Shown here: piece by piece, positions 46,001 through 48,305 of the stretch
Layout: each line of letters opens with the position of its first letter
Position numbering within the stretch: the stretch's first letter is position 1
Assembly (NCBI GenBank): GCA_045647525.1
Contig: JAZRMK010000048.1
Coordinates: forward strand, 7,928 to 71,927
Reading direction: 5' to 3'
Source of the DNA: Acutalibacteraceae bacterium
Lineage (GTDB): Bacteria > Bacillota > Clostridia > Oscillospirales > Acutalibacteraceae
DNA: 64,000 bases
Notes under the pieces: model-generated
What the model saw: the letters and a program-made list of their open reading frames with translations, nothing else
What the model was told of the DNA's origin: nothing
Databases searched by the model: none
Position numbers and translations under genes: made by a program

Positions 46001-46192
46001 ATGACTCTTGAACAGAAAAAAGAAGCTTTGCGCAATGCAGCCTCAAAAGAGTTAAGTAGCGTGTATGACCTTTATAAATGGAAGAAAGTAAAGGGCTGTG
46101 AAAATTCATTCGTGTTAAGTGGAAAGTGTGGCTCGGAAGTACGCAAATCATATCTTGTTGGTTGCAATAAGTGGAGGTCAGTATATGGATAA
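46001..46192 (+). CDS. Small hypothetical protein (63 aa), apparently translationally coupled to the WYL-LRR gene
   Basis: RBS AGAGGGA upstream. The stop overlaps the downstream start in ATGGATAA. Confidence 0.5.
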   Translation: MTLEQKKEALRNAASKELSSVYDLYKWKKVKGCENSFVLSGKCGSEVRKSYLVGCNKWRSVYG

Positions 46193-48305
46193 AGTAGATA
46201 AATTTCAAAACGAAAGTGCATCAGAGGGAAATAGCGAAGATTCACTTTTTGCTATTTATATATTAAGCATTCTTAATAAATATAGTTCTCCCGATAATAA
46301 ATTGTCTTCTCAAGATGTGATGGATTATTTGAAAAAGGATTACTCTATCTGCGATTTAGATGAAGCGGATCCCAAACGAAAGAGAGTAATGGATGCCCAA
46401 CGAAAGAAAGTAAGAAGGCATCTCGATACGCTTTCTGAATCTTATTGGGGTGGATGTATTAAAAAGGAAGAGGGAAAAACAACGAGGGAAGGCCATAAAT
46501 GGTTTTATGATGTTTCCCGAGATAAATTTGCTGATAAAGAGGCCGTAATTCAAGAAACTCTTACCGAAACAGAAGTGGAGTTATTGGTTGATCTTATATC
46601 AGCGACGAAGATTCTTAATTCCGAAGGCACGCGAGGTTTAATAGATAAGCTTTTAAAGAAAACATCAATTACTAAAGAAGATAGAGAACTCAGATTGGGG
46701 AAAATTCAGAGAGAAGCATGGTTAAAAACACCTAATGAGGATCTTGTGGAAAAGAAAGACCTTATTGAAGAATGCTTTTATAACTCCAATTTAACTTTTG
46801 ATTACGAAGATGAAAAAACCATTACCGCAACTCCACTTGGTTGGAGTTATGATGATGGAATATGTTTTCTGAATGCCAAAGTCGGAAATGAACACCGTAA
46901 ATTTTCACTCGATAAAATACGAATTTGCGACCCTGATGTAGACGGATATGAAGAACCCGAAGATTTCAGACGTTATGACGAAGAAACAGATAGTGATAAG
47001 ACCACATTAGATAGTTTGTTTGTCAACATTCCTACGATTAAGGGCGCAATAGCAGATAAAAAATGTCTCCGTTTTCTGTACCGTTCTTATGTAGTTGCTA
47101 ATGGTCGAGTTGTTTCCGCAGATGAAGAGAAAAGTGTTTTACCGCACAGCCTTGTCTTTAACGATGGAAAATACTACCTGATTGGAATTGACGAGAATTC
47201 TCCGGAACTTAATAAAATTGCGTATTTCCGAGTTGACTTAATGTTCGAGCTGTATTGTGCAGAAACAAAAAACAAACTGTCGAATTGGGATAAGCACATT
47301 TTTGAGACAATAGAACGAGCAAGAGTGGTTGAGAAACACCCGTTAATGCTGGTTGGAAGCGAAATTCCGGTAACCTTTAAAGTTGTGGAATCTGCCCTTG
47401 ACAGAGTTATTGATGTTTTTGCAGTAACGCCTGATAAATTTGTTATTACAAAAGAAACCAGGATGGTTAAAGATTCTTCCGGAGAAGGTTTTCACGAAGA
47501 AAGGGTTGTAAGTGTTCAAGTCAGCACTACCATTGAAGAGGCATTTCGTTGGGCACTTGCAAACGCGGATGTGGTTGAAGTAACTTCGCAGGATGTTCGA
47601 GACAGGATAGCCCGAATTGCCGATCCTATTTATCAGTTGTATACTCAAACTCTATCTGATAAGGTTCGCGAAAACATAGACTATGTATTGAGAGAAGGCA
47701 CATTTAAGATATCTTACAAAGTAGATGCTAATACCGCGTATGCAACATACAAAGAGTTGGCCAAAATGGACAAATTAGGTGTGGTTGATAATATGGGTAT
47801 CGCAGACGATGATATTTGCGATGGCGTAGATTATTTTGGTGATTTTATCAACACTAATCGTTTAATAATATCTGCACCAAATCTTAAAAACATGTCATGG
47901 GCATCAAAATTGGTTAATGTTAAGAGTCTTAAACTGGAAAATTCACAAATCGAGGACATTTCGTGGATGAAGGAAATGAAAAAATTAAGACGCTTATATT
48001 TGGCAGAATCTTCTTTCTCAGACCTGTCAGTTTTAAGTGAGCACAAAGAAATAGATGCTCTCGACATTAGTGGCACAAATGTCAGCGATATCAGTTTCAT
48101 CGAAGATTTCCCGAAATTAACACAGTTACATATTGCTACGTGTCCAATTGAGGATTATTCACCCTTGTTTACAACAAAATCTTGTCTTAGGTATTTGGAA
48201 ATTGACAAAAAAGCACTGGAAGAAATCGGCGAGGATAACATCAGAAACCGTCATATAGGAATTGATATTAAAGTAACAAACAATTCCCCTTTTTGGTATT
48301 TATAG
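46185..48305 (+). CDS. Cytoplasmic wHTH - WYL - WYL - WCX-like - leucine-rich-repeat fusion protein
   Basis: GGAGG lies 7 nt before the ATG at 46185. The N-terminus is wHTH-like. Two WYL-like cores (...GWSYDDGICFLNAKVGNEHRKFSLDKIRI; ...LVFNDGKYYLIGID....IAYFRVDLM). A WCX-like segment (..AFRWALANADVVEVTS..VRDRI) is followed by about 6 22-residue LRRs. No signal peptide or TM helix. Confidence 0.75.
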   Translation: MDKVDKFQNESASEGNSEDSLFAIYILSILNKYSSPDNKLSSQDVMDYLKKDYSICDLDEADPKRKRVMDAQRKKVRRHLDTLSESYWGGCIKKEEGKTTREGHKWFYDVSRDKFADKEAVIQETLTETEVELLVDLISATKILNSEGTRGLIDKLLKKTSITKEDRELRLGKIQREAWLKTPNEDLVEKKDLIEECFYNSNLTFDYEDEKTITATPLGWSYDDGICFLNAKVGNEHRKFSLDKIRICDPDVDGYEEPEDFRRYDEETDSDKTTLDSLFVNIPTIKGAIADKKCLRFLYRSYVVANGRVVSADEEKSVLPHSLVFNDGKYYLIGIDENSPELNKIAYFRVDLMFELYCAETKNKLSNWDKHIFETIERARVVEKHPLMLVGSEIPVTFKVVESALDRVIDVFAVTPDKFVITKETRMVKDSSGEGFHEERVVSVQVSTTIEEAFRWALANADVVEVTSQDVRDRIARIADPIYQLYTQTLSDKVRENIDYVLREGTFKISYKVDANTAYATYKELAKMDKLGVVDNMGIADDDICDGVDYFGDFINTNRLIISAPNLKNMSWASKLVNVKSLKLENSQIEDISWMKEMKKLRRLYLAESSFSDLSVLSEHKEIDALDISGTNVSDISFIEDFPKLTQLHIATCPIEDYSPLFTTKSCLRYLEIDKKALEEIGEDNIRNRHIGIDIKVTNNSPFWYL

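Follow-up and report, generated by a model that had tools for sequence, protein, structure and literature searches.

What would a leucine-rich repeat (LRR) domain do at the end of a bacterial regulator that stays inside the cell? The question is raised by a gene in a 64,000-nucleotide stretch of DNA from an Acutalibacteraceae bacterium (GenBank assembly GCA_045647525.1, contig JAZRMK010000048.1, positions 7,928 to 71,927 of the forward strand), here called the window. The WYL-LRR gene lies at 46185-48305 on the + strand, as do all genes, domains and promoter elements placed below, and encodes a complete protein of 706 amino acids (aa), in which an intracellular regulator of the WYL class is fused to an LRR protein-binding domain. 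This architecture is confirmed. A preliminary description, made from the sequence alone, had reported an unusual fusion. The fusion is real, but it is not a lone one, because it belongs to a conserved family that sits in a mobile gene array with recurring partner genes. This embedding changes what the WYL-LRR protein is likely to regulate. Our data suggest, with a probability of roughly 50%, that it is a cytoplasmic transcription factor of the winged helix-turn-helix (wHTH)-WYL-WCX type that regulates a group of similar promoters in its own module (box A promoters), and that the LRR domain adds a protein-sensing input.

The order of the domains was clear in an AlphaFold2 model of the full-length protein, which was built on 40 family members (mean predicted local distance difference test (pLDDT) score 73.7, predicted template modelling (pTM) score 0.39) and showed a wHTH, two barrels, a WCX unit and an LRR solenoid. 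Residues 1-530 were also modelled on their own, and Foldseek compared this second model with the PDB. Across the models the mean pLDDT was 64-74 and the pTM 0.28-0.39; pLDDT was mostly above 90 in the LRR domain, above 70 in most of the wHTH and the first barrel, and patchier in the second WYL domain (WYL2) and the WCX unit, where 10-residue blocks ranged from about 50 to 82. The wHTH (residues 17-108, 46233-46508) was placed by predicted secondary structure, invariant columns and Foldseek matches to PafBC and CapW. It has helices at 17-33, 42-53 and 63-86 and a hairpin at 92-108, with pLDDT mostly 75-87, falling to about 67 over residues 51-70, and is recognised as the wHTH of the wHTH-WYL-WCX class by predicted structure only. 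Four basic residues in the putative recognition helix, K74, K75, R77 and R78, are invariant. A helical spacer of low to medium model confidence follows (residues 128-195, 46566-46769), and the PADLOC profile PDLC01457 matches across it (E=1e-5, residues 95-263).

Two WYL-like barrels come next. The first, a degenerate one (residues 201-248, 46785-46928), consists of five strands in the model (203-247) and has tandem-Tudor-like matches in Foldseek; the Pfam WYL profile is sub-threshold there in the window protein (219-247, E=0.2). Two relatives, P0130 and P0145, score significantly for WYL over the whole protein, and their best Pfam WYL stretch aligns to this segment. Therefore, the WYL-LRR protein has a tandem WYL arrangement. 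An acidic disordered linker (residues 249-273, 46929-47003, pLDDT 31-35) leads to the canonical WYL2 with its preceding helix (residues 275-359, 47007-47261). Here Pfam PF13280 matches at residues 282-354 (E=5e-9, 36.5 bits against a cut-off of 21.8) and the PADLOC WYL profile PDLC01652 at residues 281-479 (E=3.8e-19). The invariant residues P320, F325, G328, K329, Y330, L332, I333, G334, Y347, R349, V350 and D351 form the core GKYYLIG...YFRVD, and the two profiles and this core identify the WYL domain of the class. Directly after it stands a WCX-like domain (residues 394-478, 47364-47618), modelled as a beta-alpha-beta-beta-alpha-beta, ferredoxin-like unit at 394-476 and recognised by its fold, which matches the C-domain of DriD (WYL plus WCX, E=4.8e-8). 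In the Pfam scan the WYL and LRR_4 profiles exceeded their cut-offs, but WCX found no match in the window protein and only sub-threshold ones at the homologous position in relatives.

A helical linker (residues 479-535, 47619-47789, helices at 480-527 in the models) connects the WCX unit to the LRR domain (residues 536-698, 47790-48278). The latter contains about six 22-residue repeats of the internalin type, with in-register starts at 556, 578, 600, 622 and 644 and capping units on both sides. It is modelled as a solenoid with a strand every 22 residues and is supported by Pfam LRR_4 (E=1e-10, 42 bits against a cut-off of 27), by matches to PDB sequences (the Chlorobium Roco LRR, which is the best, and InlA/InlB; E=3e-22 to 1e-12 overall, and 3e-22 to 1e-18 for Roco and InlA) and by Foldseek matches to internalin and Roco LRRs (E about 1e-9), as well as by its pLDDT, entropy pattern and module swapping. 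The segments named in the preliminary description, namely a wHTH-like N-terminus, two stretches of WYL character, a WCX-like block and about six internalin-type repeats, were thus all recovered, the upstream WYL segment by its five-strand model and the alignment of the two relatives.

Translation of the gene begins at an ATG. The open reading frame (ORF) is also open from a GTG at 46119 and ends with the stop codon 48303-48305. The ATG at 46185 is the real start: a GGAGG Shine-Dalgarno site (46173-46177) lies 7 nucleotides (nt) upstream, the homologues start with an equivalent methionine and an NCBI assembly records the same 706-aa product; more than 120 homologues are full-length. The highest Kyte-Doolittle mean over 19 residues is 1.26, and a membrane helix customarily requires about 1.6, so that no membrane helix was found. 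The N-terminus is acidic and does not start like a signal peptide, as judged from hydropathy and charge. A cytoplasmic location, as first proposed from the lack of both features, is borne out by these data. Members of the family are named 'WYL domain-containing protein' or 'YafY-like regulator' in the databases.

The 5' leader of the gene in the window holds a further ORF of 63 aa (46001-46192, + strand), which extends over the start codon of WYL-LRR. With the first 55 aa of an intact 171-aa cassette gene at locus L017 (9440-9955) it shares 87% identity, and it is absent at the other loci. Judged by this identity, the ORF is a window-specific 5' remnant of the cassette gene, and a deletion has fused it to the WYL-LRR ribosome-binding site. 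The idea of a coupled leader peptide was dropped, since the ORF is a cassette-gene remnant and absent from other loci.

A search of 5.8 billion protein clusters returned 169 relatives, and the best 120 of these are almost all 694-707 aa long, share 49-83% identity and contain WYL, whether or not LRR_4 is also detected. An exhaustive HMMER scan with residues 1-530 over 1.84 billion representatives yielded no more than 235 proteins at E<=1e-3. Distant full-length relatives (27-34% identity) were found, with the LRR detectable in P0123, P0132, P0133, P0139 and P0151. The same HMMER scan found LRR-less HTH-WYL-WYL-WCX proteins of about 490 aa (P0130 and P0145), and ordinary regulators of about 330 aa among the matches align only to residues ~270-490. 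In the set of species-representative genomes, the family occurs in metagenome-assembled genomes labelled Acutalibacteraceae, Ruminococcus, Candidatus Fimenecus, Eubacteriales and Clostridia. It is a conserved, previously undescribed family confined to uncultured gut Oscillospirales/Clostridia. In full-text searches of the literature that combined WYL and LRR, no description of a bacterial WYL-LRR fusion came up. In the available parts of two surveys of WYL domain architectures, the partners named are wHTH, Cas3, nucleases, helicases, BRCT and TerB, with LRR unmentioned there, and one of these surveys omits classes of fewer than 100 sequences.

Conservation is distributed unevenly along the protein. 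Over 117 full-length sequences, mean pairwise identity was 0.67 in the wHTH, 0.66 in WYL2, 0.65 in the WCX and 0.50 in the LRR, which makes the LRR the fastest-evolving folded domain; the acidic linker 249-273 is the least conserved region of all (0.45). N-terminal and LRR identities correlate weakly across pairs (r=0.40), and some pairs are strongly discordant, with N-terminal and LRR identities of 0.88 and 0.36 in one and 0.58 and 0.98 in another. These discordant pairs indicate that LRR modules are exchanged between alleles by recombination. Entropy in the LRR reaches 2.0-2.7 bits at repeat positions 3, 4, 6, 8 and 9, the x positions of LxxLxLxx, as against 0.3-1.4 in the scaffold, and these x positions line the concave binding face of LRRs. 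Hypervariability of the concave face together with module swapping suggests the signature of a recognition surface. The invariant recognition helix and WYL2 core argue for a constrained DNA-binding chassis that would have retained both DNA and ligand binding.

The WYL-LRR gene has two usual neighbours, which were compared across 14 distinct loci, all retrieved via the WYL-LRR gene or its partners. The upstream partner encodes a 53-aa protein (45679-45840) and has a same-strand BLAST homologue in 12 of the 14 loci, directly adjacent in 9; a thirteenth copy, about 7 kb upstream at L018, is inferred from a characteristic leader (box B, see below) and the first codons. The protein is 77-94% identical across the 12 loci, more conserved than its WYL-LRR neighbour, and belongs to no Pfam, PADLOC or PHROG family. 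It falls into 68 clusters, all from one kind of metagenome, and paralogues starting with MKTYECVAH occur in the same arrays. The downstream partner (48463-49725) encodes a PolC-derived protein of 420 aa, recognised by Pfam DNA_pol3_alpha and its finger; a PolC-like gene stands downstream of WYL-LRR in 11 of the loci, and the protein has at least 117 relatives. It aligns only to PolC residues 853-985 and 1174-1321 (the zinc-finger part of the palm, and the fingers). The catalytic palm core between these blocks has no alignable counterpart, and by eye the catalytic aspartates are replaced. Therefore, the protein is probably a pseudo-polymerase, as far as the alignment can tell.

At loci L020-L022, the 53-aa, WYL-LRR and PolC-like genes stand alone between pilus/sortase and dockerin genes, and altogether 18 contigs carried the 53-aa protein of these loci. 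The minimal recurring unit is the 53-aa protein, WYL-LRR and the PolC-derived gene, and it is self-contained and mobile. Within it, each partner gene has a box A in front and the WYL-LRR gene an inverted one, and the WYL-LRR product is the only one in the unit with a recognisable DNA-binding domain. At L020 identity is 47% for the WYL-LRR protein and 79-80% for both partners.

Box A promoters share a strict layout. In 12 loci, 34 distinct copies consist of aATnGtCCAAATTTGTCCtAAT, 5 nt, TGnTATAAT and then TGTAA; no TTGACA-like -35 is present in any of the 34, and the spacing to the extended -10 is fixed. In the window, motif comparison placed copies at 42577, 44826, 45604 and 48373, the last being the promoter of the PolC-derived gene. 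Box A has the look of a cis-element served by a regulator of its own, and it could also be a recombination site for cassette exchange. The consensus can also be written GTCCAAATTTGTCCYAAT, and each copy heads a separate cassette gene. Behind some copies stands box B, TAGTCCACAGGACTTAAAAC, followed by a Shine-Dalgarno site and MKTY codons (44870-44911 and 45648-45689 in the window); the combined promoter-leader of the 53-aa gene spans 45604-45667. Box B holds the palindrome AGTCC-ACA-GGACT, is common to otherwise unrelated cassette genes and may act as an operator or as a 5'-UTR hairpin. A GC-rich, terminator-like hairpin after the 53-aa gene (45855-45881) is kept across loci in the alignment. 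The WYL-LRR gene has its own extended -10 promoter, and upstream of it lie the inverted box A core GGACAAATTTGG (45907-45918), which is also found in L001, L010 and L020, and the -10 TATAAT (45953-45958), together spanning 45907-45958. Another terminator-like hairpin follows the gene (48320-48342).

How closely does the protein resemble regulators of known structure? In the Foldseek search of residues 1-530, all solved WYL regulators were matched, namely the DriD C-domain (4.8e-8), PafBC (2.1e-7), WYL1 (1e-4), BrxR (1.4e-4) and CapW (1.8e-4), with alignments of 463-479 columns for PafBC and CapW. When the PDB was searched with a sequence profile of these residues, no solved WYL regulator was found, the only match being a non-significant one to the winged helix of BaeR (E=0.79). 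Fold matches without sequence-profile matches indicate that the relationship to solved WYL regulators is remote. DriD and PafBC, the best fold matches, are activators of DNA-damage regulons and act at promoters without a normal -35, with the activator site in that position. Their promoters resemble the box A plus extended -10 layout of this module. DriD and PafBC are chromosomal global regulators of Caulobacter and Actinobacteria, however, neither has an LRR, and the two WYL domains of PafBC belong to paired or fused complete HTH-WYL-WCX units, unlike the tandem WYL within one unit here.

CapW and BrxR, the repressors of CBASS and BREX, have the same wHTH-WYL-WCX order (fold match about 1e-4) and, like the WYL-LRR gene, lie in mobile or accessory DNA beside genes that they are expected to control. 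They are about 290 aa long with one WYL and no C-terminal extension, whereas the protein described here, at 706 aa, also includes a second WYL in tandem, a helical spacer of 70 residues and an LRR. Outside the WYL profile, sequence similarity is undetectable, and the neighbours here are not a known defence system. WYL1, the Cas13d accessory protein, matches in the WYL fold (6oaw, E=1e-4), but its N-terminus is of the ribbon-helix-helix type and it is an RNA-binding stimulator of Cas13d, and the window gene has no CRISPR context. WYL regulators are reported to sense single-stranded DNA via the WYL domain (PMC11662680, PMC9186387, PMC11804915), which in CapW is the likely sensor of this ligand (PMC11662680).

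The LRR has its closest counterparts in two other groups. Internalins InlA and InlB and the Chlorobium Roco LRR share the 22-residue repeats (LxxLxLxx...DIS.L), and the internalin-type unit is present here. Internalins serve as adhesins that carry a signal peptide and an anchor, are either secreted or attached to the wall, and are not linked to a DNA-binding domain. The signal peptide, Ig-like region and anchor of class 1 internalins are missing from the WYL-LRR protein, no full-length internalin model matches it, and with the NCBIfam models for InlA, InlH and NEAT-LRR, whose cut-offs are 1050-1600, it reaches 36-41 bits. In Roco the LRR is coupled to a Roc GTPase-COR and not to a DNA-binding domain. 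The Pfam scan, taken to E=10, showed no GTPase or COR family, and the LRR here is C-terminal. Roco shows that such repeats function inside bacterial cells. The preliminary description had noted that bacterial LRRs are mostly secreted or surface proteins, but a cytoplasmic one has this precedent, since the Chlorobium Roco LRR, which matches best by sequence, is cytoplasmic. A hypervariable repeat recognition domain on a conserved signalling chassis, with modules exchanged between alleles, is the design of eukaryotic NLRs and of bacterial STAND/Avs/bNACHT proteins. The output of NLR-type proteins is an oligomerisation-activated effector, whereas here it would be a DNA-binding HTH without a STAND NTPase. 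No NTPase (NACHT/NB-ARC) was found in Pfam, NCBIfam or PADLOC. By analogy, the WYL-LRR protein may work like NLR-type sensors without being a member of that class.

The domain architecture, family conservation, fold matches, pattern of LRR variability, synteny and promoter motif are observed directly. They can be joined into a tentative mechanism, for which we infer dimerisation, box A as the operator, the direction of control (activation or repression), both ligands and the biological role. The protein would dimerise through its WCX unit, as solved members of the family do. Its invariant basic recognition helix would bind the box GTCCAAATTTGTCC, which replaces the -35 at the cassette promoters; upstream of its own gene the box stands inverted. 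Two inputs would set promoter activity. One would be a nucleic-acid-type ligand at the canonical WYL domain, by analogy with single-stranded DNA in DriD, PafBC and CapW, and the other a protein that docks on the LRR at its hypervariable concave face. Since a box at the -35 position with an extended -10 resembles DriD and PafBC promoters, we lean towards activation over repression. The protein-sensing transcription factor first proposed fits the HTH-WYL-WCX fold matches and the hypervariable, swapped LRR, and its function would follow from them. For the effector scaffold offered as an alternative, we found no support either way.

Several observations weigh against this explanation. Pfam finds no HTH match at its N-terminus, and the assignment to the class rests on fold, a WYL profile and a model of moderate confidence. 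Box A is not a clear palindrome, which would be unusual for a symmetric dimer. At several other loci the WYL-LRR gene is preceded by TTGAAA-N16-TATAAT without box A, and XRE-type HTH proteins are present in some arrays. A pattern scan of JGI metagenomes gave no box A matches, and all known copies come from loci found via WYL-LRR or its partners. PADLOC-DB v2 gave no match for eight neighbouring proteins at E up to 0.1, so that they correspond to no known defence system.

A more specific version of the same explanation assigns the protein a defined biological role in a new system of defence or of conflict between elements, in which it would be an immune-type sensor. As a receptor and transcription factor in one, it would recognise a protein of a phage or rival element with its LRR and nucleic acid with its WYL domains, and these signals would switch on the element-specific promoters of the 53-aa protein and the dead PolC fragment, which would block, poison or hijack replication. 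We regard this as a tentative proposal, with perhaps one chance in a few of being right. The variable concave face and module swapping of the LRR would be expected of such a sensor, and WYL-LRR changes more rapidly than either partner (47% identity against 79-80% at L020). The characterised WYL regulators CapW and BrxR control defence systems, one partner is a PolC derivative without an alignable catalytic palm core, and the module is self-contained and mobile. Against this, PADLOC matches no partner, no recognisable toxin, nuclease or NTPase is present, and the arrays resemble cargo or establishment regions (PcfJ, YodL, SSB, ParB_N, serine recombinase) that could equally carry counter-defence. 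A more doubtful alternative is a counter-defence or host-manipulating scaffold whose LRR would bind to and block a host protein that varies (for example a defence sensor), and whose HTH-WYL part is vestigial or only autoregulatory. An antagonist of variable host targets would diversify its LRR in just the same way, and the same-strand cargo of an integrative element, near the transfer and establishment genes PcfJ, YodL, SSB and ParB_N, is a natural setting for it. A vestigial regulator is difficult to reconcile with a recognition helix and WYL2 core that are invariant family-wide, and the module also stands alone in the chromosome without transfer genes.

The LRR might also have no sensory role. 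In an ordinary WYL regulator it could be a structural or oligomerisation appendage, or a dock for some conserved protein (RNA polymerase or the 53-aa protein, for instance), given that LRRs can mediate constitutive protein-protein contacts and the 53-aa gene is almost always near. A conserved partner predicts a conserved concave face, but this face is the most variable part and the 53-aa protein is 77-94% identical; LRR-less relatives also exist. We consider this explanation unlikely. The internalin type of the repeats could point instead to a secreted or surface internalin-like protein, or the ORF could be an artefactual fusion of two genes, and these readings we hold to be very improbable indeed. 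The former is refuted as far as the primary structure can tell, because the protein has no hydrophobic segment, an acidic N-terminus, no anchor domain and scores far under the internalin cut-offs. A fusion or assembly artefact is ruled out by more than 120 full-length homologues of the same architecture from independent assemblies, the single ORF being kept at 694-707 aa in more than 100 clusters. The protein-sensing regulator of box A promoters thus remains our preferred explanation.

The surroundings of the gene indicate how the module travels. In the window, the GC content around WYL-LRR is low (37-39%, compared with 43-47% in most nearby flanking sequence). This low-GC stretch follows tRNA-His and tRNA-Gln and has every gene on the + strand, and the flanks carry sporulation genes of the chromosome (YqfD, a YabP-family gene and SpoIIE). 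Rfam found no RNA element in the island besides the two tRNAs. Across loci the recurring order is PcfJ (~565 aa), a 218-aa gene, variable cassettes (DUF2779, a 97-aa gene, a 215-aa gene), the 53-aa gene, WYL-LRR and the PolC-like gene (415-420 aa). One locus runs on into NikA-like, ParB_N and large serine recombinase genes beside housekeeping genes, and another contains YodL, SSB, a Y-family polymerase and a LexA-like gene. The NikA-like, ParB_N and serine recombinase genes, together with YodL and SSB, indicate that the carrier is an integrative mobile element. Phage origin is ruled out as far as the data go: no full-length homologue was found in a phage collection of 50,697 records or in IMG/VR, the box B leader is absent from IMG/VR, and BFVD gave no meaningful fold match. 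Plasmid origin has no support either, since the plasmid collection gave LRR-only matches and no full-length homologue; the best was an LRR protein beside netB on the C. perfringens plasmid pJIR3535, in an unrelated context.

The rest of the same-strand cargo array in the window (42577-45548) is syntenic with L003, L006, L007, L009-L013 and L017. It comprises a box A with a very basic 35-aa ORF behind a conserved leader (42663-42770), a C-terminal PcfJ fragment (43140-43418, Pfam E=5e-14), the 218-aa gene (43563-44219), the 97-aa gene (44266-44559) and the box A/box B copies with the 215-aa gene (44901-45548). No recombinase was seen in the window, and its island looks like the decayed remnant of a mobile element. 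The PcfJ-like product retains only the C-terminal 92 residues of a protein that has 564-570 aa at L009 and L011 and 568 aa at L017. The last 18 nt of tRNA-Gln with its terminator are duplicated (42184-42273 and 42382-42471, 99% identical over 90 nt), the copies lying 198 nt apart and flanking a GC-rich insert of 108 nt; this duplication may be an integration or excision scar. At L003 and L016, a 40-aa ORF behind box A has the same leader as the 35-aa ORF of the window and is followed by a 520-aa gene, missing from the window, that joins a nucleotidyltransferase domain (CTP_transf_like) and a microbial PARG domain, which is poly(ADP-ribose) glycohydrolase-like. This fusion recurs in the arrays (L003 3122-4684, L016 5350-6912, L001 8086-9648) and hints at NAD/ADP-ribose metabolism, as in defence and counter-defence.

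WYL regulators are emerging as switches that silence bacterial immune systems and DNA-damage regulons until these are needed, and to our knowledge they have so far been found to read nucleic-acid signals only. If our explanation is true, a fast-evolving, recombining LRR means that some WYL switches read proteins as well, and that the recognition logic of LRR-based innate immunity exists within a bacterial one-component regulator. Should the LRR be merely structural, the protein would be a case of unusual but unremarkable domain accretion. Because the module is compact and portable, consisting of a regulator, a promoter motif, a small protein and a pseudo-polymerase, the idea is testable in a heterologous host, and the LRR specificity module with its dedicated promoter could be reused to build protein-responsive gene switches. 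If the receptor proposal is true, the family would represent a new bacterial defence or conflict module, and the first bacterial LRR pattern-recognition sensor wired straight to transcription, in a group of gut Clostridia that is abundant yet uncultured.

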